The notes under the pieces: model-generated
Seen by the model: the letters and a program-made list of their open reading frames with translations, nothing else
What the model was told of the DNA's origin: nothing
The model's database searches: none
Origin: Candidatus Omnitrophota bacterium
GTDB taxonomy: Bacteria; Omnitrophota; Gorgyraeia; Aquiviventales; Aquiviventaceae
Direction: 5' to 3'
DNA length: 46,583 bases
Assembly (NCBI GenBank): GCA_023247235.1
Contig: JAHFGW010000004.1
Location: 314-46,896, forward strand
Translations under genes and position numbers: made by a program
Shown here: piece by piece, positions 7,880 to 44,906 of the stretch
Layout: the number at the start of each line of letters is the position of its first letter
Numbering within the stretch: position 1 is the first letter of the stretch

Positions 7880-9342
7880 CTGTACGACAGCGCTCCAGGC
7901 TCGTGGTTCGCGGCTCGTGGCTCGTCCTCTTGCCTCGAGCCTCCAGCCTCCCCGGCCCGCCCCTGACTAGGGCCGGGGCGGGCGAGCCTCCAGCCCACCG
8001 GCGATGGGTCCGTTCCGTTTAGCCGGTGGACGATGGCCTTGAACGCGCGGCCGCGCTCCTCAAAGTCCCGGAACATGTCGAAGCTGGCGCAGGCTGGCGA
8101 AAAGAGCACCGTATCCCCCGGGTGCGCCAGCGCCATCGCCTCGCGGATCGCCGCCTCCAGCGTCGAGGCTTCGCGCAGCTTCTCGCTCGGCCCCAGCACC
8201 AGGCGCAGCCGCGCTCGCGACTCGCCGATCAAGACGATGCCGCGAATCCGCTCTTCGCGAAGCACCATCGCCAGCGGCTCGAAGTCCAGCCCTTTGTCGC
8301 GTCCGCCCAGGATCACCACCAGGGGACCGCGCGCTTGCTGCAGCGCGAACACGAGGCTGTCGGGCGTTGTCGATTTGGAGTCGTTCACATACGTCACGCC
8401 ATGGATCCGCCCCACCGGTTCGCGCCGGTGTTCCAGCCCGCGGAACGTGCGGATGACCTGCCAGGTCAGCGGATCCGGCACGCCCAAGATCCGGCAGGTT
8501 TGCAGCACGGCCTGGGCATTGTCCCCAAGCGCCGTCTGCGTGTGCTCGCTCAGCCGCGCCCAGGGCGGATTGGTCCGGTTCTCCCCGAACCACACCACCT
8601 GCGCCCGCACGCCCTTGGCCAGCCCGGCGACCAGCGGGTCTCGCCCGTTGAAGACCGCCCAGTCGCGCGCGGTCTGCTGTTGGAACAAGCGGGCCTTCGC
8701 CTGGATATAGGCCTCGCGCTGACCGTGCCGATCGAGGTGGTTGGTTCCCAGGTTGAGCAGCACGCCGATCGCGGGCCGGAAGGTGTCGCACCGGATCAAC
8801 TGAAACGAACTCACTTCTACCACCGCCAGGCTCTGGGGCGTCAGCTGGTCGATCACGGCGCTGAAGGGTAGGCCGAGATTGCCGCAGGCGATAGCCGGCC
8901 GCCCGGTGGCGCGCACGACCTGCGCGAGCATGGTGACGACGGAGCTCTTTCCGTTGGTCCCGGTCACCGCGACCACGGACGCAGGACAGAACCGAAAGGC
9001 CAGCTCGATCTCACTGATGATGGGCAGCCCGCGGCGCGCGGCCCATTGAATCGGCGCGACGAGTTCGGCCAAGCCGGGGCTGACGACCACCAGGTCGCTG
9101 CGCTCGATCAGGGCTTCCGTGTGGCCGCCCAGCTCGACGGTTTCAACCCCCTGCGCGCGCAGCGCGGCGCCGGCTTCTTCAAGCGCCGCATGCCGCCCGG
9201 CATCCGTGACGCTGACGCGGCATCCTGCGCGGCAGAGGAGCCGCGCGGCCGCCTGGCCGCTGCGGCCCAGGCCCACGACGGCGACCCGACGCCCTTTCCA
9301 TGGAGCGCCGGCCGCGCCGTGGCGTAGGCTGCGCGAGGTCAT
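7876..9342 (-). CDS. murD: UDP-MurNAc-L-Ala--D-glutamate ligase with repeat-derived C-terminal tail
   Basis: VVGLGRSG, VTGTNGKS, EVSSFQL, NHLDRH, NDSKST, LGGRDK, SPACASFDMF; ATGA overlaps at both ends. Confidence 0.96.
   Translation of the reverse strand: MTSRSLRHGAAGAPWKGRRVAVVGLGRSGQAAARLLCRAGCRVSVTDAGRHAALEEAGAALRAQGVETVELGGHTEALIERSDLVVVSPGLAELVAPIQWAARRGLPIISEIELAFRFCPASVVAVTGTNGKSSVVTMLAQVVRATGRPAIACGNLGLPFSAVIDQLTPQSLAVVEVSSFQLIRCDTFRPAIGVLLNLGTNHLDRHGQREAYIQAKARLFQQQTARDWAVFNGRDPLVAGLAKGVRAQVVWFGENRTNPPWARLSEHTQTALGDNAQAVLQTCRILGVPDPLTWQVIRTFRGLEHRREPVGRIHGVTYVNDSKSTTPDSLVFALQQARGPLVVILGGRDKGLDFEPLAMVLREERIRGIVLIGESRARLRLVLGPSEKLREASTLEAAIREAMALAHPGDTVLFSPACASFDMFRDFEERGRAFKAIVHRLNGTDPSPVGWRLARPGPSQGRAGEAGGSRQEDEPRAANHEPGALSYR
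7892..7993. repeat. GCTCGTG/CCTCGAG heptad element with a 33-bp palindrome inserted, inside the murD 3' end
   Basis: gctccag gctcgtg gttcgcg gctcgtg gctcgtc (7892-7926), then cctcgag cctccag cctc[33 bp, 7951-7983]gag cctccag (7933-7993). Confidence 0.85.
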
Positions 9343-10325
9343 GGGAGTGCCGTGAAACCCAAGGCGGCCAGGAGCAGGCCGGCAATCCAGAAGCGCACGA
9401 TCAGTTTCGGCTCGCTGACCCCGCCCAGGTGAAAATGATGGTGCAGCGGGGCCACGCGGAAGATGCGCCGCTTGTTGCGCCACTGGTACGAGGCGACCTG
9501 CAGGATCACGGAGATCGCCTCGCACACAAACACGCCGCCGATGATGAGCAACCATAGGGACGCGCGCGAGAGCAGCGCGATGGATCCCACCGCCGCGCCC
9601 AAGCCCAAGGCGCCGACATCGCCGAGAAACACCGAGGCGGGAAAGCTGTTGAACCACAGGAATCCCACGCAGGCCCCGGCCAGCCCTGCGCACCATGGGA
9701 CCAGGGCACGAGAGCGCGGATCCGCCAGCGCCCAGATCCCCAGGCCCATCAGCGCCAGCGCGACGCAGCCCGTGGCCAAGCCGTCCATGCCATCCGTGAG
9801 GTTCACGGCATGCGCGCAACCCGCCACGACCAGCATGGCGAATGGAATCCAGCCCCAGCCCACGTCCAGCGTGCGGTGCACCCACGGCAGCTCGACCACG
9901 CGCCCGCGAGGATCGGCCAGCGCCCCGGCGCCGACCCACGCGCCCACACAGAGCGCGATGGCCAGTTTAGGGAGCGCGGGAAGGCCCGAGGCGTTCGGCC
10001 GACGGAATTTCAGCAGATCATCCAGGAAGCCGACGCCGCCGATGAGCAGGACCGCGGACAGCACCAGCCACCCATCGGGATGGCTTACGCCGCCGGCGAG
10101 GATGGCCATGGCGCCGCCCACGCCCAACAGGAGGAGGCCGCCCATGGTCGGAGTGCCCTGCTTGGCTTGCTGGTAGGGTAACAGCGGCGGGCAATCTTCG
10201 TAGCGGGCCGGCTGCACGCACCTGGCACGGGCCAGCCATCGCGTGGCCTGGCGGCCGATACACAGACAGACCCCCGCACTGCCCAGGAAGACCAGGGCAG
10301 CCTCGCGTAACGCGTGCGTCGTTAT
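9339..10325 (-). CDS. mraY: Phospho-N-acetylmuramoyl-pentapeptide transferase (start codon non-canonical or uncertain)
   Basis: KQGTPTMGG, GFLDD, NLTDGMDGL, FLGDVG, APLHHHF. The frame stays open upstream of GTG 10217 and encodes a hydrophobic first helix back to ATA 10325, which overlaps the murF TAA. Confidence 0.93.
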   Translation of the reverse strand: MTTHALREAALVFLGSAGVCLCIGRQATRWLARARCVQPARYEDCPPLLPYQQAKQGTPTMGGLLLLGVGGAMAILAGGVSHPDGWLVLSAVLLIGGVGFLDDLLKFRRPNASGLPALPKLAIALCVGAWVGAGALADPRGRVVELPWVHRTLDVGWGWIPFAMLVVAGCAHAVNLTDGMDGLATGCVALALMGLGIWALADPRSRALVPWCAGLAGACVGFLWFNSFPASVFLGDVGALGLGAAVGSIALLSRASLWLLIIGGVFVCEAISVILQVASYQWRNKRRIFRVAPLHHHFHLGGVSEPKLIVRFWIAGLLLAALGFTALP

Positions 10326-11779
10326 GATCTCCGCGACCGCTGGACGAGAAACTCCGCGACCTGTTCCAAATGCAGCCGCCGTGATCCCTTCACGAGGACT
10401 CCGTCTCCGCGTCGCAAGATGGACGGCAATCCGTGGAGCAACTCATCCACTGTCCGATAGGTGGTGATGCCGGCCGGCGTGGACCGGCGGGTATCCTGCA
10501 CGCCGCGCGCCACGTGATCGGCATACTCTCCCACCGCGATAATCTCGTCGATGCCCAGCTGCGTCGCCAACCGCCCGATGGCCTCATGGGCGGCGGGCGC
10601 GAACGAGCCCAGTTCCAGCATGTCGCCCATGATGGCGATCCGGCGCCTGGCCTGGATATCCCGCAGCATCTCCAGCGCCCGAGCGAAGGACAGCGGGTTG
10701 GCGTTGTAGCAGTCGTTCAGAATCGTCACGCCGTCGCAGCGCACCACCTCCGAGCGAAGCGGCAAAGGCAGGAAGGACGTCAGTCTGGCGCGCGCCGTCT
10801 CCAAGGGGATGCCCATGGCCCAGGCGCAGGCCAGCGCGGCGAGCGCGTTCTCGACGTTGTGGTAGCCCAGGAGGGGCACGAGGAACTGCTGGGCTCGATC
10901 CCGCAGGCGGATCGCCATGCCCGTGGGCGTCTTGACGGTCCGCCGGTCATTGGGCATGTCCACGCTGCGGACATCGACCGCCTGGATGTCGCAGCGCTCG
11001 GTGCTGCCAAAATAGACGGTGCGCACGCGAGGCGGGAGGTAGTTCCGCGCCTCCAGGCAGACGTCGAGTTGATCGCCGGGCAGCACGGCCGAGCCATCGG
11101 CCGGCAGCTCCTCCAGGAGCGACAGCTTTTCCTGCAGCACATCCATGAGCGAGCCGAAGTACTCCAAATGCGCCGGGCCGACGTTCGTGATGACCGAGAC
11201 GGTCGGCTGCGCGATCGACGCGAGGTACGCGATTTCGCCCGGATGGTTCGTGCCGAGCTCGACCACGGCCATCTCGTGCTGGTCGCTCAGCTCCAGGAGC
11301 GCCATGGGCAGCCCGATATGATTGTTCTGCGTGCCGGGATTCTTGAGGACGACTTGGGGGCCACCGAGCAGATGCGCGATCAGATCTTTCGTCGTCGTCT
11401 TGCCGCAGGAGCCGGTAATCGCCACGAGCGGGATGTCGAAGCGCTGGCGATGATACGACGCCACATCGCCCAGCCCCTGCGCGGTGTCCTCCACCACGAT
11501 CGTCGGCACGCTGCGAGCCCCGTTGGTGCAGGCCGACAGGTCCGAGACGATGAGACAGCCGGCCCCGCGATGGACCGCTTCGCTGACAAACCGATGCCCG
11601 TCAAATCGCTGGCCGCGCAGCGCGACGAAGGCCTGCCCCGGCTGCAGGCGGCGGGAGTCGATCGCGATGCCCGTGACGCTGCCCGTGCCGTCTGAGTGTT
11701 GCAGGCGGCCTTGGGTGGCTTGGACCAAGGCGTCAATCGTCCAACGCGGTGCTGGTGGCATGTGTGGGCCGAGCGTCAA
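10322..11779 (-). CDS. murF: UDP-MurNAc-tripeptide--D-Ala-D-Ala ligase
   Basis: IDSR, GQRFDGH, ITGSCGKTTTK, NNHIGLP, ELGTNHPGEI, NDCYNANP, GDMLELG, LVKGSR; start TTG 11779 or ATG 11761. Confidence 0.96.
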   Translation of the reverse strand: MTLGPHMPPAPRWTIDALVQATQGRLQHSDGTGSVTGIAIDSRRLQPGQAFVALRGQRFDGHRFVSEAVHRGAGCLIVSDLSACTNGARSVPTIVVEDTAQGLGDVASYHRQRFDIPLVAITGSCGKTTTKDLIAHLLGGPQVVLKNPGTQNNHIGLPMALLELSDQHEMAVVELGTNHPGEIAYLASIAQPTVSVITNVGPAHLEYFGSLMDVLQEKLSLLEELPADGSAVLPGDQLDVCLEARNYLPPRVRTVYFGSTERCDIQAVDVRSVDMPNDRRTVKTPTGMAIRLRDRAQQFLVPLLGYHNVENALAALACAWAMGIPLETARARLTSFLPLPLRSEVVRCDGVTILNDCYNANPLSFARALEMLRDIQARRRIAIMGDMLELGSFAPAAHEAIGRLATQLGIDEIIAVGEYADHVARGVQDTRRSTPAGITTYRTVDELLHGLPSILRRGDGVLVKGSRRLHLEQVAEFLVQRSRRS

Positions 11780-13242
11780 ATCGCGACGCTCTGTCGGCTG
11801 TTGAACACTCGTTCCACCACGTCACGGTCTGAGAACGGCACCGTGACATGGTCAAACACCTGATACGTCTCATGGCCTTTGCCGGCGATCAAGACGGTGT
11901 CATGCGGCTGCGCCAGCGCCAGGGCGGCGGCGATGGCCTGCTCTCGATCCGGCACGATTTGATACTGCTGGAAGCTCGGCGCGAACCCGGATTGGATCTG
12001 CCGGATGATCTGCTCCGGGGTTTCTCGGCGCGGGTTGTCCGACGTCAGGATGACATGGTCGGCCAGCAGGCTGGCCATGCGCCCCATGATGGGCCGCTTG
12101 GTCCCGTCCCGATTCCCGCCGCAGCCGAACACCACCAGCACCCGTCCCCGCGTCAGCTCCCGCAGGGAGAGCAGGACCAGCCGCAACGCATCCGAGGTGT
12201 GGGCGTAGTCGATCAGGACGCGAATCCCCGCATCGTTGGGCACGACGTCCATGCGTCCGGGCACCGGCGGCAGTTCTGCCAGGCCCAGCTGAATCGCCGA
12301 GGGCGCAATCCCGTGCGCCAACAACGTCGCAGCGGCCGCCGCGACGTTGTAGGCGTTATGCCGGCCTAGCAGCGGCGTCGAGAGCGGCAGGATGCCCCAG
12401 GGGGACTCGAGCGTCAGCATGATGCCGTCCCAGCTGCATTCCACATGGCGGACCCGCACGCGGGAGGCCTGCTCCAGGCCGTACGTGACGACGGAGCGCA
12501 TCGGCAGCGTCTCGGCTAAGGTGCGGCCGAAACTATCATCGACATTCAGGACCGCGTAGCCGTCCGGACGGAGCTGGTCAAAGAGCTTGCGCTTGGCGGC
12601 GGCATACGCCTCGATCGTCTTGTGATAGTCCAAATGGTCCGAGCCGAGGTTGGCGAAAATGCCCGCCGCGAAGTGCAGGCGGGCCACGCGGCCTTGCGCG
12701 AGCGCGTGGGAGGACACTTCCATCGCGCACCACTCGATGCCCTCGGCAACCATTTGCGCGAAATACCGCTGCAGCTCAAGCGGGCCCGGCGTGGTATTGG
12801 TTGACGGCACGGTGCGCTGGCCAATCTGATACACGATGGTTCCCAGCAGCCCCGCGCGCTCGCCGGCCGCCTGCAGGATGGCTTTCAGCAGATACGTAAT
12901 GGTCGTCTTGCCGTTGGTGCCGGTCACGCCAAGGAGCTTCAGCCGTTTCGTCGGGTGGCCGTAGAATTTTTCCGCGATCATCGCCAGCGCCTCCCGCGTA
13001 TCCCGCACCACCACGCACGGGCAGGCGCGCGGCAGCTGCGCCGGTAGGCGCTCGGCGACGACGGCCGCCGCGCCGCGGCTCACGGCCTCTTCGATGAACT
13101 CGTACCCATCGCGCTCGGCCCCGGGCATGGCGACGAACAGATCGCCCGGCCGGACCTGCTTGGAGTGAGCCGCCACCCCAGCGATTGGGACGGCGGCGAC
13201 CGGGGCCGCGGTCACGCCATGGAGCAAATCTCGCAGGGTCAT
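11776..13242 (-). CDS. murE: UDP-MurNAc-dipeptide--meso-diaminopimelate ligase
   Basis: VTGTNGKTT, MEVSSHAL, DHLDYH, IDYAHT, FGCGGNRD, DNPR (mDAP-type motif), AGKGHETYQ. Confidence 0.96.
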   Translation of the reverse strand: MTLRDLLHGVTAAPVAAVPIAGVAAHSKQVRPGDLFVAMPGAERDGYEFIEEAVSRGAAAVVAERLPAQLPRACPCVVVRDTREALAMIAEKFYGHPTKRLKLLGVTGTNGKTTITYLLKAILQAAGERAGLLGTIVYQIGQRTVPSTNTTPGPLELQRYFAQMVAEGIEWCAMEVSSHALAQGRVARLHFAAGIFANLGSDHLDYHKTIEAYAAAKRKLFDQLRPDGYAVLNVDDSFGRTLAETLPMRSVVTYGLEQASRVRVRHVECSWDGIMLTLESPWGILPLSTPLLGRHNAYNVAAAAATLLAHGIAPSAIQLGLAELPPVPGRMDVVPNDAGIRVLIDYAHTSDALRLVLLSLRELTRGRVLVVFGCGGNRDGTKRPIMGRMASLLADHVILTSDNPRRETPEQIIRQIQSGFAPSFQQYQIVPDREQAIAAALALAQPHDTVLIAGKGHETYQVFDHVTVPFSDRDVVERVFNSRQSVAI

Positions 13243-13243
13243 G

Positions 13244-14965
13244 TCACGTCGTCCCGACTGTGCCCGCTGGCTCTCTCCTGGGCAGGGTCCAGTAGCTAGC
13301 GAGCCCTTCCACAATGCGCTGGAACATGGGGGCGGACACCAGCCCGCCATAGTAGGCCGGCCTGGGCTCGTCCATCGCGACCACAATGACGAATGACGAG
13401 TCAGGTACCGGCCCAAAGCCAGCGAAGGAGGCTACGAAACGGCTGTGGGAGTAGCGGCCGTTCGGCTCAACTTTCTGAGCCGTCCCGGTTTTACCGGCCA
13501 CCGTGAGGCCCTGGACTTTCGCCAGCCGGCCGGTACCTGACTCAACGACGTTCACCAACAGTGACTGCACTTGTTTCGCGATTTCGGGGCGGATCACACG
13601 CGGGCCTTCCGGCGGCGCATCCGATCGCACAATCGCGCCCTCCGGCCGTTGGATCCGCTCGACCACATAGGGATGGACGCGCTGGCCGCCGTTGGCGATG
13701 ATGGCCATCATGGTGGCCAACTGGATCGGGGTCACGGCCACCTCCTGGCCAATCGGGATGATGAAGCGCGAGAGCTTCGACCATGTGGCGGTGGGCGCCA
13801 CCATGCCGGGCACCTCGCCGGGGATGTCGATCCCGCTGCGCTCCCCGAATCCGAACGCGCGCACATAGCGATAGAGCGTGTCCGGGCTCAGCCGCTGCGC
13901 GGCCTTCGACGTGCCAATATTGGACGAATAGGTGATCACATCGCGGAATGACAGGAGACCCAGGGGATGATGGTCATGCAGGACGTGGCGGCCCACCGTC
14001 GGCCAATTCCCTTCTTCGCAGTCCAGCATGTCCTCGGGGCTGACCACGCCTTCTTCAAGGACGGCCGCAGCCGTCACGACTTTGAAAACGCTCCCAGGCT
14101 CCATCAGGTCCGTCACGGCGCGATTGCGCCGCCGGTCGGCCGACGCCTGGCCGGGATCATTCGGATCGAATGTGGGACGGTTCGCCAGGGCGAGGATCGC
14201 CCCGGTGTGCGGATCCATGACCACCACCGAGCCACCGGCCGCGTGGAAGCGCTCCATGCCCCAGTCCAGCGCTTCCTCCACGACCTGCTGCACCACCCCG
14301 TCGATGGTCAGGACGATATCCGCGCCGTCGAGGGCTTCGGTCTCCTGTGTCCACGAGCCGATGAGCAGATGGCCGCGCGCGTCTCGCAGCGTGGAGCGCC
14401 ATCCGGCCTGTCCGCGCAGCATGCCATTGAGCGCCAGCTCAAGGCCCTCGAGCCCGTTCTGATCGATGTTGACGAATCCGAGGAGATGGCTCGCGAGCCG
14501 TCCGTGGGGATAGAACCGTTTCGGCTCCTCGCGAATCCCGATCCCTTCGGACCGGAGCGGATCGAGGCTCGGGGTCACCCCGGGGTCAACCTGGCGGGCG
14601 ACCCAGACGAATCCCTTGGGGCGTTGCAGGCGCTCCCGGACGGTCCTCACGTCGCGCTCGACCAAATGGGCGAGCCGCTGCGCCGTGGCGGCAGGATTGG
14701 ACACGTGGCGTGGATTGGCGTAGACGGACGGGGTCAGCACGCTCAGCGCCAGCAGCCGGCCGTTGCGGTCGTAGATGCGCCCGCGCTGCGGAATGAGCGT
14801 CTGCCAGGCGGTGTACTGTTTGTTCGCGGTGGCGGTCAGGCCGCGGGCCCCGAGCACTTGCAGCCACACGCAGCGCCCCCACAGCGTGGCGAACAGCGCG
14901 AGCGCCACGACGAACACGCCGACAATGCGTTCGTTGGTGGTGGCGGTTTTCATCACTTGATTCAC
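13244..14965 (-). CDS. ftsI: Class B penicillin-binding protein (FtsI/PBP3)
   Basis: N-terminal TM, RGRIYDRNG, RFYP, GLEGLE; SxxK (GSVFK), SxN (SSN) and KTG motifs; start 14965 or 14953. Confidence 0.95.
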   Translation of the reverse strand: MNQVMKTATTNERIVGVFVVALALFATLWGRCVWLQVLGARGLTATANKQYTAWQTLIPQRGRIYDRNGRLLALSVLTPSVYANPRHVSNPAATAQRLAHLVERDVRTVRERLQRPKGFVWVARQVDPGVTPSLDPLRSEGIGIREEPKRFYPHGRLASHLLGFVNIDQNGLEGLELALNGMLRGQAGWRSTLRDARGHLLIGSWTQETEALDGADIVLTIDGVVQQVVEEALDWGMERFHAAGGSVVVMDPHTGAILALANRPTFDPNDPGQASADRRRNRAVTDLMEPGSVFKVVTAAAVLEEGVVSPEDMLDCEEGNWPTVGRHVLHDHHPLGLLSFRDVITYSSNIGTSKAAQRLSPDTLYRYVRAFGFGERSGIDIPGEVPGMVAPTATWSKLSRFIIPIGQEVAVTPIQLATMMAIIANGGQRVHPYVVERIQRPEGAIVRSDAPPEGPRVIRPEIAKQVQSLLVNVVESGTGRLAKVQGLTVAGKTGTAQKVEPNGRYSHSRFVASFAGFGPVPDSSFVIVVAMDEPRPAYYGGLVSAPMFQRIVEGLASYWTLPRREPAGTVGTT

Positions 14966-14974
14966 TGAATTATG

Positions 14975-15280
14975 TCAATCGCTGACGTCGCCCTGCGCGA
15001 CCTGCACGGTGGCGCGCTGGCCTGAGGCGGTGTCCTCGAGCGCCGACCACGCGATCAGCTCAAGCTTGCGCTGCGCGGTCACCTGCGAGAGATAGACGGG
15101 GGATTCCAGCCCGACGACGTCAACCGTCAGCCGCGCGACGTCGGTCCGAGACTGCTCCAAGTGGCTCAACTGCTCTCCCAGCCCATAGCCTTGGGCGATA
15201 ATGCGGTGGCGCAGCGACACCTGCAGGAGGCCGCATCCCACGCAGACCGCCACCAGGACCAGCCACCGCGTGAGCTGCAT
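14975..15280 (-). CDS. ftsL: Cell division protein FtsL-like
   Basis: 101 aa, N-terminal TM plus coiled coil, located between rsmH and ftsI. Confidence 0.7.
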   Translation of the reverse strand: MQLTRWLVLVAVCVGCGLLQVSLRHRIIAQGYGLGEQLSHLEQSRTDVARLTVDVVGLESPVYLSQVTAQRKLELIAWSALEDTASGQRATVQVAQGDVSD

Positions 15281-16239
15281 CAGCGTTTCTCCACGGCGCG
15301 CAGCCGGACCGACCGCGCGCGCGGGTTGCGCGCCGTTTCCTCCGGTCCGGGCCGTACGACCTTCTTCGTCAGCCGGGTCCAGATGTGGTCCTGTTCCCCT
15401 GCGCGGAAGGCCTGCTTCACCCGGCGATCCTCCAGCGAATGAAACGACAAGATGACGGCTCGTCCCTGCCCAGGAGCCAACAGGCCAGGCAGTGCGGCCA
15501 GCGTGGCCTCCAGGGCTCCCAGCTCGTCATTGACGGCGATGCGAAGCGCTTGAAACGTCCGCGTGGCCGGGTGCAGCCGTCCCTGCCCGTCGCGACGCGG
15601 CACGGCACGCGCAATGACCCCGGCCAGTTGTGTCGTGGTCGTAAAGGGGTGCGTTCGCCTCGCGGCCACGATGGCTCGGGCGATGCGCCGGGCAAATCGA
15701 TCTTCTCCCAAGGTCTCCACCAGATGCGCGAGCCCGGCCTCAGGCAAGTCGTTGACCAGCGAGGCGGCGGTCACCGGCTGCCCCGCATCCATCCGCATGT
15801 CCAGCGGGCCTTCCCGCAAGAAGCTGAAGCCGCGCTCCGCGCGGTCGACCTGGAGGCTGGACATCCCTAGGTCGACCAGCAGCCCGTCGATGCGCGGCAC
15901 ATGCAGCTCGCGCAGCAGCGCCGGGAGTTCTCGGAAGTTTGCGCGGCGGAAGGTCACCATCCCCTGCCACTCGGTCAGTCGCTGCCGCGCGATGGCCAAT
16001 GCGGAGCCATCGCGATCGATGGCAATGAGCCGTCCGCCCGGAACCAGTCGCGGGAGGATGGCCGCGCTGTGCCCGCCGGTGCCGCAGGTGGCATCGACGA
16101 TCACTGAGCCGGGACGCGGCGCCAGGTACGTGAGCACCTCATTGACCAGGACCGGCTGATGGAAGGGTTCCGAGACTGATGCGGGTGCGTGTGCCATCAC
16201 GCTCTTGCAAACCTCTTGGACCAACACCGACATGCCCAT
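15280..16239 (-). CDS. rsmH: 16S rRNA m4C1402 methyltransferase RsmH (MraW)
   Basis: HQPVL, DATCGTGGHS, DLGMSSLQ, PLDMRMD, HPATRTFQALRI, SFHSLEDR, NPRARS; start 16239 or 16197. Confidence 0.97.
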   Translation of the reverse strand: MGMSVLVQEVCKSVMAHAPASVSEPFHQPVLVNEVLTYLAPRPGSVIVDATCGTGGHSAAILPRLVPGGRLIAIDRDGSALAIARQRLTEWQGMVTFRRANFRELPALLRELHVPRIDGLLVDLGMSSLQVDRAERGFSFLREGPLDMRMDAGQPVTAASLVNDLPEAGLAHLVETLGEDRFARRIARAIVAARRTHPFTTTTQLAGVIARAVPRRDGQGRLHPATRTFQALRIAVNDELGALEATLAALPGLLAPGQGRAVILSFHSLEDRRVKQAFRAGEQDHIWTRLTKKVVRPGPEETARNPRARSVRLRAVEKR

Positions 16240-24720: not shown

Positions 24721-25254
24721 TCAGTACTGCACAAGTGAGAAGATCTGGTGCGGAGTAAGTTTCTGCCGGCCCTGGAGTGCGGTGAGCTCCAGCAGAAAGG
24801 CGATCTCCACCACCTGCGCCTGAAGCCGCTGCGCCAGTCGAACGGCAGCCCCCATGGTGCCCCCCGTGGCCAGGACATCATCCATCAAGAGCACGCGCTC
24901 ATCCGCGGCCAACGCGTCCTGGTGGATCTCCAACACGTCTTCGCCGTATTCGAGCGTGCAGCGCTCTTGATGCGTGCGATGCGGCAGCTTGCCCCGTTTG
25001 CGCACCGGCACCAGCCCGATCTTCAGGCGCGAGGCGACCGCGGCGCCCACCACGAAGCCGCGCGACTCAATGGCGACCACGGCATCGAGCTGCTGGCCAC
25101 GGTAGCGCTGGGCAAAGCGCTCAATGGCCTCGTCGAATGCCTGCCGATCCCGCAACAGCGGGGTGATATCCCGGAACAAGATACCCGGCTTGGGAAAGTC
25201 GGGAACGTCCCGGATATAGCGCTTCAAATGTTCGGCTTGCCCGTCATGAGACAT
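24721..25254 (-). CDS. apt: Adenine phosphoribosyltransferase
   Basis: PDFPKPGILFRDITPL, IESRGF, RKRGKLP, LEYG, DDVLATGGT. Confidence 0.97.
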   Translation of the reverse strand: MSHDGQAEHLKRYIRDVPDFPKPGILFRDITPLLRDRQAFDEAIERFAQRYRGQQLDAVVAIESRGFVVGAAVASRLKIGLVPVRKRGKLPHRTHQERCTLEYGEDVLEIHQDALAADERVLLMDDVLATGGTMGAAVRLAQRLQAQVVEIAFLLELTALQGRQKLTPHQIFSLVQY

Positions 25255-25275: not shown

Positions 25276-25350
25276 TCGGGGCGCTGGGATTTGAACCCAG
25301 GACCTCTTGGTCCCGAACCAAGCGCTCTAGCCAAACTGAGCTACGCCCCG
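25276..25350 (-). tRNA. tRNA-Pro(CGG), 3' CCA not encoded
   Basis: CGGGGCG/CGCCCCG acceptor stem, D arm GCTCAGTTTGGCTAGAGC, anticodon arm CTTGG-TTCGGGA-CCAAG, T loop GTTCAAATC; discriminator A is followed by GAT. Confidence 0.97.
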
Positions 25351-25388
25351 ACACGGCAAACAGGAACTGGTACGATGAGGAACAACAC

Positions 25389-25417
25389 ATTCTACAGGGA
25401 CGCTGAAGGAGGGTCAA
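25389..25417 (-). promoter_or_regulatory. Sigma70-type promoter for the tRNA-Pro/apt unit
   Basis: TTGACC (25417-25412)-N17-TAGAAT (25394-25389); the -35 overlaps the ribE stop codon. Confidence 0.7.
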
Positions 25418-38559: not shown

Positions 38560-39090
38560 TTACCGATGGAGCACGAGTTGCTCCATCACCAAGTGGGCGC
38601 GCAAGAGGCCTTGCCGGCCGGGGGCGCTGGAGATGTGCAACCGCTTAATTTCGATCAGTCGCGGCATACTAAACAGCGCATCAAGGAAGGCGAGCAGCTG
38701 GTCCTGCGGCGCGCTGAGATCAATCTCGAGTCCCACGCGCGTCACTTCCCCGCGTCGCAGGGCGGGCTTGGGCCGGAGATCGACTTGCACATCCGCGCGG
38801 CGAGCCAAGGCCTCGAGTTCTCCGAGGAAGGTCGCAGGATCGATGTCGGGGGCGTCTTCCGAGACGTACGGCTGGATCAGCTGATACTCGCGGTCGATCG
38901 CCTGCCGCTTGGCGAAAAGCTCGTTCAGCCTGTCCACTTTCGCGGACTGGGATTCTACCTGCTGGCTCAGCTCTTTCGCGCGGCCCCAGAGTGGCTCGAG
39001 CAATTGCGCGATCACGAACCACACGCCTACCGCCAGGACCGCAAAGAGGAACAGGCGGCGCTCCCGAGGATTAATCTTAACGAGCGGCAT
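38560..39090 (-). CDS. GspM/PilO-like protein
   Basis: INPRERRLF plus TM, coiled coil and ferredoxin-like C-terminal domain. Confidence 0.8.
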   Translation of the reverse strand: MPLVKINPRERRLFLFAVLAVGVWFVIAQLLEPLWGRAKELSQQVESQSAKVDRLNELFAKRQAIDREYQLIQPYVSEDAPDIDPATFLGELEALARRADVQVDLRPKPALRRGEVTRVGLEIDLSAPQDQLLAFLDALFSMPRLIEIKRLHISSAPGRQGLLRAHLVMEQLVLHR

Positions 39091-40483
39091 GGCTTTGCTG
39101 GACCACCAGCTCGAAGTCGGCCCGCTCTCCGCTGGGCGTCGAGCGGCGCGTCGAGTGCTGCAACCGCACTTCCGAGACGCCGTCGAGCTGCTCCAAGACC
39201 TTCAGGTAGGCGAGCACCTGTTCCGTAGAGGGGGCGCGCCCGCGAAGCAACAGTTGCCGCTTGCTTTGCTCGAAGGTCAGCGCCTCCAGCGCGACAGGAG
39301 TCGGCGTGAGCCGAAGGATGCCGGCCAGCAGGCTCGCCAGCTGATGCCGCTGCCAGACCACGCCGCTGACAAGCTCGACCGCGCTCTGCTCCGCCCTGAC
39401 TTGGCGCGTCACCGGCTCAAGCGTGTCGATCACCTCGTCGAAATGCGCGGCCAGCTGCCGCTGTTGCGCCACCTGCAGGGCCACGAGGCCAGCGCCCAAA
39501 CTCAGGGCGCCAAGCGCCAGCGAGCCGATGAGCACGGCATCCCGCAGGCGCTGTCGCTGGCGCGCCTGCACGACCACCTCGGGCGGCGTCAGGTTCAATA
39601 GCTGCCCGGCGTCGGCGCAGGCCGTGCCGCAGACCACGACCGGGGACACCGGCACCGCGCCAATCAGCGGCCGCAAGAAGACGCCCTGGATCGCAGGCAC
39701 GTGCGCGACGGGCAGCCCGAAGCGGCGCTCAATCGATTCCGCCCATGGGGCTAGCGGTTCCATGCCGGTCAGAAGGAACGAGCGAACCTCGGTACCGGGC
39801 AGCTCCTTGCGCACCGTCGACAAGCTGCGGTCTAATTCCTGCGCCAATGGATCGAACCCCTCGGCCCCTTCGACGACCTCCTCCTTGGCTCCAGACCCCA
39901 CGCTGCGGCTGAAGAGCACGCGCTCCCCGGACACCAGCACCAGGTCGACCCGTTCCTCATCGCGGTTGACAATCAGCACCGGCTCCACGACCTGCGCCGG
40001 CCGCGTCTGAGCCATGTACCAGCCGAGCACCCCCCACGAACTGACCGTGAGCCGTTGGACCACCAGCCCGGCGCTCTTCAGCGGGCCGACCACGCGATCG
40101 ATCGCGTCGCGACGGCAGGCGACGACGGCGACCGTGCTGAGGCCTTCCCGTCGCTCCAGCACCTGGTGGTCCACGACGGCCTGCTCCTTCGGATACGGGA
40201 GCTGGGCCTTGCCGTAGAGCTCCACCATCTTCGCCAAGTCCTCCGGCTGCGCCGCGGGAAACTTAATGAGGCGCGAGATCACTTGGTCGCGCGGGATCAC
40301 GCCCATCGCCGGGGCGCCCTTGAGCCCCAGCTTCTTCACCAGACGCTCAAGCGTCCGGCCGATCGGCGTCTCCATGCCCAGCGGCTCGACCTGCAACGTG
40401 CGCACGCGCAGCCGCCCGGGCGTCCCTTCGGCCACCGCCAGGCGCAGGCTGCTATGTGTCCATTCGACAACGACCCGTCGCAT
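39077..40483 (-). CDS. GspL-like (PilM actin-like domain fused to PilN-like domain)
   Basis: N-terminal actin-like domain (QLPY, FSRS, LLTG), LNLTPPE motif, TM, PilN-like C-terminus. Confidence 0.8.
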   Translation of the reverse strand: MRRVVVEWTHSSLRLAVAEGTPGRLRVRTLQVEPLGMETPIGRTLERLVKKLGLKGAPAMGVIPRDQVISRLIKFPAAQPEDLAKMVELYGKAQLPYPKEQAVVDHQVLERREGLSTVAVVACRRDAIDRVVGPLKSAGLVVQRLTVSSWGVLGWYMAQTRPAQVVEPVLIVNRDEERVDLVLVSGERVLFSRSVGSGAKEEVVEGAEGFDPLAQELDRSLSTVRKELPGTEVRSFLLTGMEPLAPWAESIERRFGLPVAHVPAIQGVFLRPLIGAVPVSPVVVCGTACADAGQLLNLTPPEVVVQARQRQRLRDAVLIGSLALGALSLGAGLVALQVAQQRQLAAHFDEVIDTLEPVTRQVRAEQSAVELVSGVVWQRHQLASLLAGILRLTPTPVALEALTFEQSKRQLLLRGRAPSTEQVLAYLKVLEQLDGVSEVRLQHSTRRSTPSGERADFELVVQQSHAAR

Positions 40484-40494
40484 CTTAAACGCCT

Positions 40495-40550
40495 GGGGAC
40501 ACTTCGATTTTTCGCTTGAAGATCCGCCGGCGAAAAATCAACGCGTCCCC
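40495..40550. repeat. GGGGAC...GTCCCC hairpin (REP-like), gspK-gspL intergenic
   Basis: GGGGACACTTCGATTTTTCGC (40495-40515) versus GCGAAAAATCAACGCGTCCCC (40530-40550): 18/21 complementary. Confidence 0.8.
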
Positions 40551-40564
40551 TATCCTGCGTCGCA

Positions 40565-41617
40565 TCAGCTTTCCCGCCACGCGAGAATTTTCGGAGGTTC
40601 GGTCTCGTTCGCGGAGCGCTGCACCAGCGCTTCCACGCGCGCTTCGATCGGCGGGTTGAGCAGCCGTCCCGTCGCGTTCACCGTGAAGAGGTGCGAGGTG
40701 ACGCCAAACTGATTTTGAAGCAGGGTTTGCTCGTCATCGTCCAACACGATGCCGCAGCTCTCCTGGGCCGTCGGCACAATCTCCGCCTCTGTCTTGAAGA
40801 TCGTGCCGCTTGCCCGGCAGGCCCGCAGGCTCTCCGCGGTCCCTTCACGCATCCCCATCGCCGCGAGGACCTCCGGGCTGACCGTGTTGATGTTCAGCTT
40901 GTCGGGGACGCTCAGCGGCGCCACGCTGGCCAGCCGATAGAGGAGCGCAAACGGCTCCGCCTCAAGACCTGGGATCGCCAACAGCTCTTCGGGAGCGACG
41001 AGCGGGCCGTTCTTGGCCGCATACGGCGGCTGGGCTCCTTCATCCACCTCCAAGCCTTCTGCGCCGAAGGGGTCGGTGTTGGCATCCAGATAATCGGCGA
41101 TCCGCGGGGCCGCCTCCGGCGCAGTCACCAAGCGGCCCAGGGTCTTGTACCACAAGTTCCCCGCATCCGACTGGACTCTGTTCAGCGGCAGTTTGCGCTC
41201 TTCATCCACCATGCGAATCTCAATCCGCGCCCCCGGGCCTGAGGGACCCGGCTGCTCGGGCAGATCGACGGCCCAGACCGCGGGGTCCTCGCTGTCGGGA
41301 AACTGCGCCCAGTCATCGCCCAGCCAATCATACTGGCCTCCACCCTCTTCAGACGTCTTGGCGTCATCGGCCAATCGCTGGAGCGCCAGGTACACCCCGC
41401 TGCGCGCCAGGACCCTCGCCTGCTCGCGTCCGACCCGGTACTTCGTCAGGCGCACTTCCGTGGAGAGGAACCGGCCGATCGCCACCGCCAGCACACTGAG
41501 GATCGTCACAAGCCATAGCGTCACGATCAGCAAGGACCCGGTATCGGGGACCCGTCCATTTTTTCTGTCCGAGAGCCAATGGAAAAAAGAGACGCGTCCC
41601 CGATCAAGGCGATTCAT
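40565..41617 (-). CDS. gspK: Minor pseudopilin GspK
   Basis: G|SLLIVTLWLVTILS without Glu5 (typical of GspK), DWLGDDW, DEERKLPLN, KNGPL..PEELL, LNINT; ATGA overlap with gspJ. Confidence 0.9.
   Translation of the reverse strand: MNRLDRGRVSFFHWLSDRKNGRVPDTGSLLIVTLWLVTILSVLAVAIGRFLSTEVRLTKYRVGREQARVLARSGVYLALQRLADDAKTSEEGGGQYDWLGDDWAQFPDSEDPAVWAVDLPEQPGPSGPGARIEIRMVDEERKLPLNRVQSDAGNLWYKTLGRLVTAPEAAPRIADYLDANTDPFGAEGLEVDEGAQPPYAAKNGPLVAPEELLAIPGLEAEPFALLYRLASVAPLSVPDKLNINTVSPEVLAAMGMREGTAESLRACRASGTIFKTEAEIVPTAQESCGIVLDDDEQTLLQNQFGVTSHLFTVNATGRLLNPPIEARVEALVQRSANETEPPKILAWRES
41543..41604. repeat. GGGGAC...GTCCCC hairpin inside the gspK leader-peptide coding region
   Basis: ATCGGGGACCCGTCCATTTTTTC (41543-41565) versus GAAAAAAGAGACGCGTCCCCGAT (41582-41604): 20/23 complementary. 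Confidence 0.8.
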
Positions 41618-42309
41618 TCGGCGGCCTTGGGCAGCGTGCCCGTCGGAATCCACACGAGTTCCCGAAATGGCCGGCCCGGCTCAAACCGGCCTCCCAGTGC
41701 GACCAAGCGAGGAATCTCCTTCGTGCTGGTCCAGGTGTCGCGCCATTGCAGCGCCCCGGCCGTCCCGGAGGCGGCATACGCATACTCGACGGCGAGCTCG
41801 GCACAGCCGGCCGCCAAGAGCACCGGCGTACCCGCCTGTCGCGCCATGACGTCCCCGATCGCCTGGCCCGTCCGCCACAGGCCCTGCACGCCGTCCTGCT
41901 CGGCGCAGCGATAGGTGACGTACTCCACCGCTCCGGGCCTGGCCGCCGTCGTGGGACGCACCGTCACCCACCGCAGCTCCGTGTGGCCAAAATACGGCGC
42001 CACGACCGCTTCCTCGCGCGGGTCATACGCGATCGCGTTGACAAGCTCCCGGCGGAACTGATCCAAGGCGAAGTGCCGCTCGCGCAGCGTCTCCGTCTCC
42101 CCGGTGACCCGCCGCCAGACGCGCACCCCCCCCTGCAGATGCGTCCCCAGGCCGACAAACAGGACGGACATGATGGTCGCGGCGATGATCAGCTCGATGA
42201 ATGTAAAACCCTGAGAGCTCGTGGCTCGTGGCTCGTGGTTCGTGGCCTTTCCTCGAACCTCCAGCCTCGAGCCTCGAGCCTGGCTGGCACTCTGCCCCGA
42301 ACCTACCAT
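41614..42309 (-). CDS. gspJ: Minor pseudopilin GspJ-like
   Basis: G|FTFIELIIA class III signal, fourth pseudopilin gene, C-terminal WRDTW..IPRLV; 34-aa leader. Confidence 0.82.
   Translation of the reverse strand: MVGSGQSASQARGSRLEVRGKATNHEPRATSSQGFTFIELIIAATIMSVLFVGLGTHLQGGVRVWRRVTGETETLRERHFALDQFRRELVNAIAYDPREEAVVAPYFGHTELRWVTVRPTTAARPGAVEYVTYRCAEQDGVQGLWRTGQAIGDVMARQAGTPVLLAAGCAELAVEYAYAASGTAGALQWRDTWTSTKEIPRLVALGGRFEPGRPFRELVWIPTGTLPKAAE
42217..42280. repeat. GCTCGTG/CCTCGAG heptad element in the gspJ leader
   Basis: gctcgtg x3 + gttcgtg (42217-42244), then cctcgaa cctccag cctcgag cctcgag (42251-42278). Confidence 0.9.
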
Positions 42310-42758
42310 GAATCCGGCACCCACTCTGAGGGCCAGAGCGCCCACAGCCGGACTTGCGGGCCGGCGCCCTCCACCGGATGGACGGCGAAATTGACTTGGC
42401 TCACCGGCACCCCCCCAGCAGCTCCCTGCGGCGCGGCCGTGATCTGCCAGCCGTACGCTTCATGTGGGGCCTCGAACGTCCCCTCGCCAGACCGTGCCGT
42501 CGGCTGGGAGGCCGCGCGCGCCGCCTCCACTTCCGCCAGCAGCGACCGGCTGAGCGAGAGCAGCACATCCGTGGCTTCCATCGTCTTCAACGCCCGCAGG
42601 TGCCCCGAAAAGCTGCGGCTGATAAACACCAGGCCCAGGCCGATCACCGCCGCGGAGAGGACCGCTTCAACGAGCAGCAGGCCTCGGCCTACCCGCCGGG
42701 CCGCGGCGGGCCTACGATCCTGACCCGTCGGTAAGGGTGACTCGGCTTGTGGTCGCAT
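42303..42758 (-). CDS. gspI: Minor pseudopilin GspI-like
   Basis: G|LLLVEAVLS class III signal; small; lies between gspH and gspJ. Confidence 0.75.
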   Translation of the reverse strand: MRPQAESPLPTGQDRRPAAARRVGRGLLLVEAVLSAAVIGLGLVFISRSFSGHLRALKTMEATDVLLSLSRSLLAEVEAARAASQPTARSGEGTFEAPHEAYGWQITAAPQGAAGGVPVSQVNFAVHPVEGAGPQVRLWALWPSEWVPDSW

Positions 42759-43254
42759 GCACGGTCACAGTATAGGCACGCCCGCGATGGCTCACCACCA
42801 GCGTGGCCGCTTCGCTCGTGCCATCAGGAAAAAAGGTGACGCGCTCCACCGGCACCTCGTCCCGGGTCAGCGCGACGTCGATGGCCTCAGACGCCACGCG
42901 CCTGTGGGTGCCCCGCTCCTCAAGCGGCAGCGGTTCTCCCTCGATCGGGTCGATCTCCAACCGCGCCTGCCTGGCATCTGGGTCCCAGACCCAGGCGATC
43001 GGCTCGCCTTGGGTCACCGCGCGCTCGTGCGCATACCGGAAGAGTTGCGCCAAGGCGAAGGCGGTCTGCTCAGTCTGAAGCCGCGCGGCGGTCCCGGTGA
43101 AGTTGGGCACCGCCGCCACAAGCAACATGGCCAGCACGACGGTGACCAGCACCACCTCGACGAGGGTAAACCCAGGGTGGGCGGGCTTAGTCTTGCCAAT
43201 TGCCGATGTCGTCGTTGCCCACTCTGCCGTCGGGGCCCAGCGAATAGAGCTCAT
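42712..43254 (-). CDS. gspH: Minor pseudopilin GspH/FimT-like (start uncertain)
   Basis: G|FTLVEVVLV, VTFFPDGTS; nearest in-frame ATG is 43254, inside gspG. Confidence 0.8.
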   Translation of the reverse strand: MSSIRWAPTAEWATTTSAIGKTKPAHPGFTLVEVVLVTVVLAMLLVAAVPNFTGTAARLQTEQTAFALAQLFRYAHERAVTQGEPIAWVWDPDARQARLEIDPIEGEPLPLEERGTHRRVASEAIDVALTRDEVPVERVTFFPDGTSEAATLVVSHRGRAYTVTVHATTSRVTLTDGSGS

Positions 43255-43678
43255 AGTCCTGCTGGTGCTCCGACTGCATGCTATAGATGTAGGAGCGGTG
43301 CCAGGGATCTTCCGGCAAGCCCTTTTTGAGATAGGGGCCATTCCATTTCCCTTCCTCCACGTCCGCAGGCGGCTCGCGCCGTACCAGCTCCTCCAACCCA
43401 TCGGGATAGCGGCCCATGTCGAGCTCATACAGATCCAGGGCCAACCCGATCGCGGCGATGTCCGCCCGCGCCCGCGCGGTCTTCGCTTGCTCGGTGCGTC
43501 CCGTCAGCCGCGGCACGACCATCGCGGCCAGCACCCCGATAATGATGATGACCAACATGAGCTCAATCAGCGTGAAAGCACGCTCGAGGTTCGAGGCTCG
43601 AGGCTCGAGGGAAAGACCCGAACCCTGGTCGCCACGAGCCATGAACCACGAACCACGAGCCCGTTTTGCGCGACTCAT
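43187..43678 (-). CDS. gspG: Major pseudopilin GspG
   Basis: A|FTLIELMLVIIIIGVLAAMVVP, GRYP, WNGPYL, DPW..SYIY, YSLGPDG..GNDDIGNW; 34-aa leader; ATGA overlap with gspF. Confidence 0.95.
   Translation of the reverse strand: MSRAKRARGSWFMARGDQGSGLSLEPRASNLERAFTLIELMLVIIIIGVLAAMVVPRLTGRTEQAKTARARADIAAIGLALDLYELDMGRYPDGLEELVRREPPADVEEGKWNGPYLKKGLPEDPWHRSYIYSMQSEHQQDYELYSLGPDGRVGNDDIGNWQD
43582..43660. repeat. GCTCGTG/CCTCGAG heptad element (opposite orientation) in the gspG leader
   Basis: gctcgag gttcgag gctcgag gctcgag (43582-43609) and ccacgag ccatgaa ccacgaa ccacgag (43632-43659). Confidence 0.9.
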
Positions 43679-44883
43679 TGGACGACCAGCCCAATCTGGA
43701 ACACGGGCAGTAACATGGCCAGGACGATGAACATGACGACGCCTCCCACGCCTACGAGCAGAATCGGTTCCACGATGGCGGTGAGCCCCTTGATCGCCCG
43801 GTCGACTTCGCGCTCATAGGTCCCGGCGACTTTCAGCAGCGCCGCGTCGACCGTCCCGGACTCCTCGCCGACGGTCACCATGTTGCTGACGAAGGGCGGA
43901 AATTCCCCGCTATTGGCCAAGGCGACCGCGATGCTCGCCCCGTCGCGAACCGACTCTTGGACCTGGACGACCGCGCGCCGCAAGACCGAATTCGAGACGC
44001 TCTGCGCGACCACATCTAACGCCTGCAAGACCGGCACGCCCTGGCCGACCATGACGCCGAGGTTCCGCATGAAGCGCGACGTCTCCAGCTTGCGCGCCAG
44101 CGTGCCCACGCCGGGCAGCACCAGCACGAGCCGATCCACCACGGCGCGACCCGCAGCACTGTTGCGCCACCGGCCGAACCCCAGCGCGAACAGCAGCAGG
44201 CCGCCGAGCAGCGCCCACCACCACCGGGTCAACACCCGGCTGACCGCCAGCAGCATGCGCGTCGGCAGCGGCAGCAGCTGGCCGGACTCAATGAAGACTT
44301 GCGACAGCGTGGGGATCACGTAGGCCAGCAGAAAGACGGTCATCGCCACCGCGACCGCGAGCACAAAGAGCGGATACGCCGAGGCGGTCAGCAGCCGGCT
44401 CCTCAGCTCGGCGTCGTTCTCGCCCAGCTCCGCCAGGCGGGCCAGCGCCTGCTCCAGGCCTCCGCCCACCTCCCCGGCCCTCACCATATTCATGTAGAGC
44501 GGCGAGAACACGGTGGGATGATCGGCGAGGGTGTCGCTGAGCGCGCGGCCGTCGCGCACGCCGGCCGTCAGGCCGTCGATGACTCGGCGCAGCGCTGGAT
44601 GGTCCGTTTGCTTAGCGAGGAGGGTGAGTGCATTCAGCAGCGGCAGGCCGCCGCCCAGCAAGTCCGCGAGCTGCCGCGTCGTTTGCGCGAGTTGGCGCCC
44701 GGAGATGCGGCGACGGGCGAAGGTCCTCCGGCCGCCGCGCGCGCCGGTGACCTCCATGATGCTCAGCGGAAAGACGCCTTGACTGCCCAGGCGGTTGATG
44801 GCGGCGGCCTCGTTCTCCGCCTCGATGGTGCCCTCGAGGATCTTGAGCGCGCTGTCGCGCGCTCGGTAGGCGTACTGGGCCAT
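43675..44883 (-). CDS. gspF: T2SS inner-membrane platform protein GspF
   Basis: MAQYAYRARD, TRQLADLL, MVRAGEVGG, YP, GEESG, EPILL, AMLLPVF. Confidence 0.95.
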   Translation of the reverse strand: MAQYAYRARDSALKILEGTIEAENEAAAINRLGSQGVFPLSIMEVTGARGGRRTFARRRISGRQLAQTTRQLADLLGGGLPLLNALTLLAKQTDHPALRRVIDGLTAGVRDGRALSDTLADHPTVFSPLYMNMVRAGEVGGGLEQALARLAELGENDAELRSRLLTASAYPLFVLAVAVAMTVFLLAYVIPTLSQVFIESGQLLPLPTRMLLAVSRVLTRWWWALLGGLLLFALGFGRWRNSAAGRAVVDRLVLVLPGVGTLARKLETSRFMRNLGVMVGQGVPVLQALDVVAQSVSNSVLRRAVVQVQESVRDGASIAVALANSGEFPPFVSNMVTVGEESGTVDAALLKVAGTYEREVDRAIKGLTAIVEPILLVGVGGVVMFIVLAMLLPVFQIGLVVQ

Positions 44884-44891
44884 CGGTGCTG

Positions 44892-44900
44892 AGTATAACA
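44892..44900 (-). promoter_or_regulatory. Possible extended -10 (TGtTATACT) 8 nt upstream of the gspF ATG
   Basis: Minus strand gtcggtgTGtTATACTcagcaccgATG; no Shine-Dalgarno sequence in the gap. Confidence 0.45.
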
Positions 44901-44906
44901 CACCGA

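Follow-up and report, generated by a model that had tools for sequence, protein, structure and literature searches.

The pseudopilin operon

In this analysis we describe palindromic repeat elements in the leader-encoding 5' ends of the pseudopilin genes gspG, gspJ and gspK of a Candidatus Omnitrophota bacterium. These genes lie in a stretch of 46,583 nucleotides (nt), which we call the window, and positions refer to it unless a contig is named. On its minus strand the window carries an operon of the type II secretion or type IV pilus-like kind, with the gene order gspE, gspF, gspG, gspH, gspI, gspJ-like, gspK, a pilM-pilN fusion, gspM/pilO-like and secretin. A Pfam scan of the operon proteins matched the domains T2SSG, GspH, N_methyl, T2SSK_1st, PilM_2 with PilN, and T2SSM/PilO. 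The open reading frames (ORFs) of GspE, GspF and the secretin were named by eye from the ORF list.

The major pseudopilin gene gspG (43187-43678, minus strand as all genes here; T2SSG E=7.9e-28, N_methyl E=1.8e-6) begins with an ATG at 43678-43676 that shares the sequence ATGA with the stop codon of gspF (43675-44901, from the ORF list). The gspI-like gene (42303-42758, from the ORF list) has no Pfam match and takes its name from its position. It overlaps the end of gspH with its 5' end and has its sole canonical start, an ATG, at 42758. The ATG of the gspJ-like minor pseudopilin gene (41614-42309; named from its place in the operon, N_methyl E=1.9e-5) lies at 42309-42307, one base ahead of the gspI stop, and that of gspK (40565-41617; T2SSK_1st E=1.4e-7) at 41617-41615, again sharing ATGA with the gspJ stop. 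Read from these starts, the leaders are 34 residues long in GspG, 34 in GspJ, 27 in GspK and 26 in GspI, in agreement with an earlier note on this DNA. Cleavage, marked here by an arrow, is expected past Ala34 in GspG (ERA↓FTLIEL), at SSQG↓FTFIEL in GspJ and probably at PDTG↓SLLIVTLW in GspK. Of the proteins with the class III motif, [G/A]↓[F/M/L]-T-L-x-E followed by about 20 hydrophobic residues, GspG, GspH and GspJ match Pfam N_methyl, while the fit of GspI (GRG↓LLLVEAV) and GspK (DTG↓SLLIVTLW) was judged by eye alone.

Hairpin elements in the leaders

The leader of gspG contains a palindrome of a first, heptad family at 43582-43660 (minus strand), which consists of period-7 arrays in inverted arms. 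It starts at nt +19 of the ORF, 14 nt past the gspF stop codon. On the messenger RNA (mRNA) it reads as four GCTCGTG-like units (GCTCGTG, GTTCGTG, GTTCATG and GCTCGTG), a 23-nt loop and four CTCGAGC-like units. The gspJ leader carries a 63-nt member of the same family at 42217-42279 (minus strand) with a 7-nt loop. Tandem Repeats Finder reports two period-7 arrays in either gene, in gspG at 43582-43610 and 43632-43658 and in gspJ at 42217-42246 and 42251-42281, with 3.9-4.4 copies per array and 85-91% match. Each element is the reverse complement of the other (83% over an arm of 46 nt and 87% over one of 30 nt), so that the same element is present in opposite orientations, as the earlier note had proposed. 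Its description of a GGGGAC...GTCCCC hairpin in the gspK leader is also borne out. This second-family hairpin, an inverted pair of GGGGACNNNTCNATTTTT found by inverted-repeat detection, occupies 41543-41604 (minus strand), and its 23-nt arms (41543-41565 and 41582-41604) have a complementarity of 87%.

Each leader was folded as RNA and compared with 200 shuffles. The gspG leader reaches -50.8 kcal/mol (z -3.97) and the gspJ leader -50.9 kcal/mol (z -4.25), and gspK has a z-score of -4.10; no shuffle was as good in any of the three cases, and stem stability ranges from -36 to -51 kcal/mol across the three leaders. A smaller CCCGCCG/CGGCGGG stem in the gspI leader (42692-42710, minus strand), which had been listed alongside these hairpins, is present but folds at chance level (z +0.85, with 162 of 200 shuffles folding equally well). 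A genome search for dispersed copies of it gave nothing beyond short GC-rich matches, and we do not regard it as a repeat element. The gspH region is unremarkable (z -0.61).

No tandem arrays were found within the mature pilin domains, which is what the earlier note had claimed. Its observation that removing 81 nt from gspG, that is codons 8-34, restores MSRAKRA↓FTLIEL can likewise be read directly from the sequence. In none of gspG, gspJ and gspK does an in-frame ATG, GTG or TTG separate the element from the cleavage site. The true starts can therefore hardly lie downstream of the elements, a condition under which the earlier note would have failed, and because no canonical start intervenes the leader elements must be translated.

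Dispersed families across the genome

Both families extend far beyond the operon. The genome comprises 1,342,209 bp in 46 contigs, has 65% G+C and is 90.7% complete; gene positions come from a codon-usage caller made for this analysis, which gave 1298 genes and 91% coding DNA. The gspG/gspJ heptad family has 39 merged elements genome-wide. Heptad families of all kinds amount to 157 arrays, which after merging and filtering give 107 elements, 45 of them two-armed, and further units include TGTTCAT, GCGGAAT/GAGTTCG, ATGTGTA, TATACGC and GAGACAA. Heptad elements are 56-93 nt long. Since their total lengths are often multiples of seven (56, 63, 70 or 77 nt), the loops keep the 7-nt period as well.

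The copies form subfamilies with common orders of arm units and common loop motifs. For example, the loop of the gspG copy is identical at 19 of 23 positions (counted manually) to that of a copy at 20296-20374 on contig C14. The same contig has two identical 79-nt copies 256 nt apart (25075-25153 and 25331-25409), one in frame inside the lysyl-tRNA synthetase (LysRS) gene and the other 25 nt past its stop codon, apparently the product of local copying.

The gspK hairpin, too, is one of a dispersed family, a point absent from the earlier note. A search with the arm GGGGACNNNTCNATTTTT, allowing up to 4 mismatches in 18 nt, gave 53 matches, of which about 10 may be due to chance under equal base frequencies. 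They include 15 inverted pairs of constant spacing that are not attributable to chance, and one of these pairs lies at 40495-40550 in the spacer between gspK and the pilM-pilN fusion.

Nearly half of the heptad elements stand at the ends of genes. The element start falls between -10 and +30 nt of an upstream stop codon in 50 of 107 cases, against an average of 4.0 and at most 10 in 200 trials of random placement, and 67 of the 71 mostly intergenic elements lie between co-directional genes. We considered this proximity as proof of targeting and rejected it. With 91% of the genome coding, operon spacers leave so little room that a surviving intergenic insert must sit near a stop. Another heptad family supplies an example in the window itself, 13 nt past a stop codon at 2166-2233, where a hairpin of four TGCGGAA and four TCCGCAC units has the same architecture with a different unit.

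Enrichment in prepilin leaders

A motif scan followed by inspection identified 20 prepilin-type genes in the genome. Six of them have a heptad element in the leader, namely gspG, gspJ, a gene on contig C11 (37252-37782) and three consecutive genes on contig C33, and gspK is a seventh gene with a leader element, from the GGGGAC family. When elements were paired with their downstream genes (n=79), 58 pairs were closed by a stop codon and thus intergenic, and 21 were open. Translated heptad elements are found in 6/20 prepilin-type genes against at most 15/1278 other genes, a count that treats every other open case as translated (Fisher p = 2.8e-7). The enrichment in prepilin leaders that the earlier note had put forward as a check is thus observed.

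The C33 genes belong to a second pilus or secretion operon (9500-15600), in which four consecutive genes have N-terminal heptad elements: two prepilins, a GspK-like protein and a secreted protein. In the secreted protein the copy lies in the N-terminal region of the signal peptide.

Leaders in related genomes

The heptad family was amplified recently and in a lineage-specific manner. When up to 2 mismatches are allowed, the 21-nt pattern of three GCTCGTG units is absent from 30 of 35 same-family genomes; this genome has 64 overlapping matches, the relative G005 has 13, and three other genomes have 1-2 each. A stricter search, allowing 1 mismatch at most, gave matches in only 3 of 121 genomes sampled from the class. 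GspG itself has matches in 40 of 41 related genomes.

We used the C-terminus of GspF as an anchor for finding the orthologous gspF-gspG junction in 19 relatives. The gspG leader has 5-12 residues in ten of them, of the type MxxKRG↓FTL, and 23-57 residues in the other nine. Period-7 arrays with units unlike those of this genome occupy seven of the nine long leaders and one short leader, and other repeats occupy two. The earlier note had made its case depend on the length and content of orthologous leaders. Short leaders in over half of the relatives and arrays in most of the long ones agree with it; in the remaining two long leaders this agreement extends only to repeats of other kinds. At most of the loci listed for other Omnitrophota lineages, a leader counted from the closest in-frame ATG has about 5-13 residues (judged by eye).

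The leader units of the relatives are dispersed in their own genomes. ATTCCGC-type units have 27 matches in G019, 8 in this genome, 6 in G010, 5 in G017 and none in G009, and GAGACNN-type units 28 in G009, 24 in G019, 22 in G015, 2 in G010 and 1 in this genome. In the relatives' 19 loci (60,946 nt), the stretches of 110 nt upstream of prepilin cleavage sites make up 9% of the sequence and contain 20 of the 29 arrays (binomial p = 6e-15), and 16 of the 48 cleavage sites have an array.

Leader sequences are unrelated among orthologues, and the N-terminal helix is invariant. Since some relatives carry non-heptad palindromes at the gspG leader site, several repeat types use it. In G022 the palindrome GGGGTCAGACCCC, which is not of the heptad type, encodes MKGVRPLP in the leaders of both GspG and GspJ, and another relative's locus has a different repeat peptide in its GspG leader. 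Long gspG leaders are therefore derived and short ones of the ancestral type, and the site has been recolonised repeatedly.

Copies inside housekeeping genes

Copies of the gspG/gspJ family are also translated outside the pilus genes. Thirteen lie in frame within ten ORFs and encode peptides such as ARGSRLEARG...HEPRATS. Pfam identifies nine of the ten hosts: valyl-tRNA synthetase (ValRS, with four copies), class II LysRS, PheT, CarB, UvrA, an RluD-type pseudouridine synthase, an Elp3-like radical SAM protein, KdsB and a MiaB-like protein. GlyS appears to bear a heptad element as an N-terminal extension. Whatever the cyclic frame, the arm units GCTCGTG and GCTCGAG are free of TAA, TAG and TGA, as are their complements, and because the arms are stop-free in all six frames any in-frame copy can be translated.

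The four inserts of the ValRS gene (contig C27, 10015-12867) were compared with nine aligned relatives, in which a given site is empty in 3-6 cases and otherwise contains a peptide encoded by some other repeat. Site 1 is gapped in G005, G009, G008 and G030, and site 2 in G006, G008 and G030. C-terminal tails hold copies too, since a degenerate copy of the gspG/gspJ family lies in the last 30 codons of an ORF in the window (7898-7951). An element upstream of SLKILIED on contig C16 was considered as a 5' untranslated region and rejected, because Pfam places it inside PheT.

Groundwater and viral contigs

Contigs assembled from four groundwater runs of one study reproduce 41500-42679 (gspJ and gspK) and 43581-43702 (gspG) without gaps; the runs possibly come from the source sample of the genome itself, so this is not an independent confirmation. 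No insertions or deletions appear in these contigs, although as a test of length variation this is weak because contigs drop rare variants. Summed contig depth, about 10 elsewhere, climbs to 225-630 across the heptad arrays (42184-42335 and 43476-43627), where contigs also end. The repeat is abundant in the community, and it breaks short-read assemblies.

In IMG/VR an exact 28-nt heptad array was found in three predicted viral contigs of 62-64% G+C with long single or mixed arrays, and we saw no clear link between these three contigs and this genome. One of them has several different heptad arrays adjoining each other, like the composite leaders of some relatives.

Origin of the leader elements

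We think it probable that the leader hairpins of gspG, gspJ and gspK are copies of two dispersed palindromic families that behave like selfish DNA, of the kind of repetitive extragenic palindromic (REP) sequences or Rickettsia palindromic elements (RPEs), and that persist where they are tolerated. The family membership of the hairpins, their lineage-specific amplification, their obligatory translation, the short leaders of relatives and the enrichment in leaders carry this reading. From them we infer near-neutrality of the inserts, cleavage of the long leaders and mobility of the elements.

Under this proposal copies would persist only where an insertion does little harm. One such place would be the narrow gap that separates a stop codon from the following start in packed operons, a second would be permissive loops and tails of proteins, in frame, and a third the leader of class III signal peptides. 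Leader peptides are described as staying in the cytoplasm and as being 6-26 residues long in known systems (PMC4471445). Because the leader is cytoplasmic and removed by prepilin peptidase, an in-frame, stop-free insert of 21-27 codons could be roughly neutral. As the pseudopilin genes start on the preceding stop with no spacer, the leader would also be the first tolerant DNA past that stop. The earlier suggestion of leaders as a safe harbour for small mobile repeats stands in so far as the elements are dispersed and amplified, relatives have short leaders and prepilin leaders are enriched. It does not stand for leaders as the sole harbour, since post-stop spacers, ValRS, LysRS, PheT, CarB and UvrA hold copies as well.

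Several observations weigh against this explanation. No match to Peptidase_A24, the prepilin peptidase, was found in this 90.7%-complete genome despite its roughly 20 prepilin-type genes, so that cleavage of the leaders is not tied to any gene of this assembly. Because 15 of 18 same-family relatives have one, it is probably encoded in the unassembled 9% of the genome. The search for a mobiliser covered two families: Y1_Tnp (PF01797), the domain of REP-associated tyrosine transposases (RAYT) and IS200-type transposases, had no match here and was detected in control genomes, and RVT_1 had no match in the genome either; other transposase families were outside the search. No target-site duplication or conserved flank is visible around the copies. 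The starts of non-pilin genes are approximate, since they come from the codon-usage caller, and the p-values across genomes are overstated because related genomes are not independent samples. Prepilin leaders are occupied more often (6/20) than post-stop junctions (44/1278; p = 6e-5), an occupancy about 5-10 times higher. About half of the sampled genera have the gspG site filled. Such repeated filling is not expected from neutrality alone and needs few permissive sites under heavy insertion, or targeting, or a benefit. The over-occupancy of leaders and the filling of the same ValRS loops in several genera fit the first of these, few permissive sites under heavy insertion pressure, and a targeting preference or a modest benefit is possible.

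Other features of the flanks bear on the class of element. By eye, the flanks of 26 oriented copies contain no GTAG or CGTC head. Among the features of miniature inverted-repeat transposable elements, inverted arms are present, and a comparison of filled sites showed no consistent flanking direct repeat.

An unlikely alternative is that the hairpins are selected regulatory RNA, in which a stem 13-30 nt past a coupled start tunes re-initiation or protects the downstream mRNA and so sets pseudopilin stoichiometry, as the earlier note had raised. The stems are indeed very stable, with z-scores near -4, and begin at about +19 (gspG), +30 (gspJ) and +13 (gspK), near the edge of the footprint of an initiating ribosome. 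Occupancy is far higher in the leaders of the G, H, J and K orthologues than at other junctions, and the use of different repeat families at one site could imply that structure matters over sequence. However, the arms do not co-vary: complementarity is 0.776 within copies and 0.777 between copies (permutation p = 0.60, 26 elements), which leaves the stoichiometry idea without support. The complementarity of the arms is only 71-86%, each heptad having one or more fixed mismatches, and both orientations occur after stops in similar numbers (7 and 9, counted manually). The same elements sit inside ValRS, LysRS and CarB, where such a role is inapplicable, and the major pseudopilin G and the minor J and K bear them alike. 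The gspG leader is unexpanded in 10 of 19 relatives, and one relative has two leader arrays that are mutually non-complementary. An Rfam scan of 40400-43800 matched no family; the best hit, a chance match to a microRNA hairpin model, scored 29 bits against a gathering score of 90.

We give slightly less credence to a related idea, that the heptad-periodic palindromes are an undescribed kind of repeat which some enzyme of this Omnitrophota family makes or moves and which is directed to stop/start junctions, and that in pilus and secretion operons a hairpin just within each coupled pseudopilin ORF has been co-opted as punctuation that sets subunit dosage. If true, it would account for the retention of some element at the gspG site in about half of the sampled genera despite the repeated replacement of its sequence. 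We consider this doubtful and favour the selfish-DNA explanation.

It is very improbable that the arrays are contingency loci, in which gain or loss of a 7-bp unit shifts the frame and phase-varies a pseudopilin. This idea, also from the earlier note, draws on a unit that is not a multiple of three, on arrays at the 5' end of genes for surface structures, and on Haemophilus, where heptanucleotide repeats are described as driving phase variation (PMC8262952, PMC12721329). The arrays here are short (4 units) and imperfect, and most copies are intergenic. Identical arrays stand in frame in essential genes, four of them in ValRS. Since slippage there would be lethal, heptad arrays must be fairly stable. 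Together with the lack of length variants in the contigs of the four runs, this gives the proposal no support.

We attach as little probability to a role of the extended leaders as protein, either through delayed processing of the type IVb kind or as a peptide with its own function. Leaders of 15-30 residues are given as normal for type IVb pilins (PMC4471445), and the inserts carry a net positive charge of about +5 in GspG and +3 in GspJ (counted manually). Against this, the peptide merely translates a DNA repeat that is found in all frames and both orientations, the leader sequences of orthologues are unrelated, and 10 of 19 relatives have short leaders. Finally, the idea that the true starts lie downstream and the repeats are untranslated spacers, which could appeal to the codon-usage caller placing the gspG, gspJ and gspK starts at internal Met codons of the mature parts, is on the sequence already contradicted and can hardly be right: the conserved cleavage motif and the Glu5 helix lie 3' of the elements with no in-frame start between, the alternative Met13 of gspG sits within the first arm, and a later-starting protein would lose the N-terminal helix that is invariant among orthologues.

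Relation to known repeats and leaders

The elements are closest to RPEs in behaviour, to REP sequences in position and copy dynamics, and to the heptamers of Xanthomonas and Nostoc in architecture. They are not members of any of these groups by sequence or associated enzyme, with RPEs compared by description. RPEs (Ogata et al. 2000) are reported to insert in frame in many metabolic genes (PMC10969869). As characterised in that source, they share with our elements the form of dispersed palindromes in several families, a presence both between genes and in frame in unrelated housekeeping genes, translation, and small host genomes. RPEs are about 150 bp long there (PMC10969869), whereas the elements here have 56-93 nt. 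Other differences are the tandem 7-nt units and often periodic loops, which set them apart from RPEs by description, their concentration past stop codons and in prepilin leaders, and a host that is not Rickettsia but a free-living or epibiotic groundwater Omnitrophota bacterium.

REP sequences, the bacterial interspersed mosaic elements (BIMEs) and REPINs are portrayed as short, GC-rich, imperfect palindromes of high copy number that lie between co-directional genes near 3' ends, in lineage-specific numbers (PMC3333891, PMC3116915, PMC3733652), and the elements described here resemble them in this. They differ in that no Y1 transposase was matched, no GTAG or CGTC head is present, the arms are heptad arrays and many copies lie in ORFs. 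Dispersed tandem heptamer repeats are described for Xanthomonas (GGGAATC) and for Nostoc (GGGGAYT, of the short tandemly repeated repetitive type), with a preference for four copies, a genome-wide distribution and positions between aligned ORFs less than 50 bp from stops (PMC4692102). The same source presents them as single, G-rich arrays, read as formers of G-quadruplexes and under-represented in coding DNA (PMC4692102). In contrast, the arrays here are mostly inverted pairs with many unit sequences and are often translated. The heptad architecture thus shows the same four-unit habit as these repeats, with no mobilising gene found among the two families searched, Y1_Tnp and RVT_1.

Type IVb or Flp prepilins also have a long hydrophilic leader before a class III cleavage site, which is characterised as native, conserved within families and 15-30 residues long (PMC4471445). 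The extra length in our case is instead a recent repeat insertion in a short GspG-type leader, which reaches 34 residues here and 57 in a relative. A literature search that did not extend to subscription journals or supplementary files gave no account of repeat elements in the leaders of prepilins, nor of repeats of this kind in Omnitrophota. PMC10066038 contains no occurrence of 'repeat', 'palindrom', 'hairpin' or 'leader'.

The elements extend translated selfish palindromes, known from Rickettsia, to an uncultured, ultra-small, free-living or epibiotic phylum. It seems that prepilin leaders can accommodate 20-50 additional residues of arbitrary sequence, which makes them a natural test of the tolerance of prepilin peptidase and membrane insertion. 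In a similar way the inserts are a natural map of permissive sites in essential proteins, with one aminoacyl-tRNA synthetase holding four. There are also consequences for annotation, as start-codon callers will truncate such pseudopilins and the repeats break short-read assemblies.

Other features of the operon

The start of gspH (42712-43254; Pfam GspH E=1e-8, N_methyl), a gene in which the repeat element is absent, is uncertain. It has no ATG, GTG or TTG near its cleavage site (HPG↓FTLVEV, with Phe+1 at 43170-43168), a point not made in the earlier note. An ATG at 43254, inside the end of gspG, would give a 28-residue leader, and an ATT at 43200 a leader of 10 residues. Downstream of gspK, PilM-like and PilN-like domains are joined in a single ORF of 468 residues (39077-40483).

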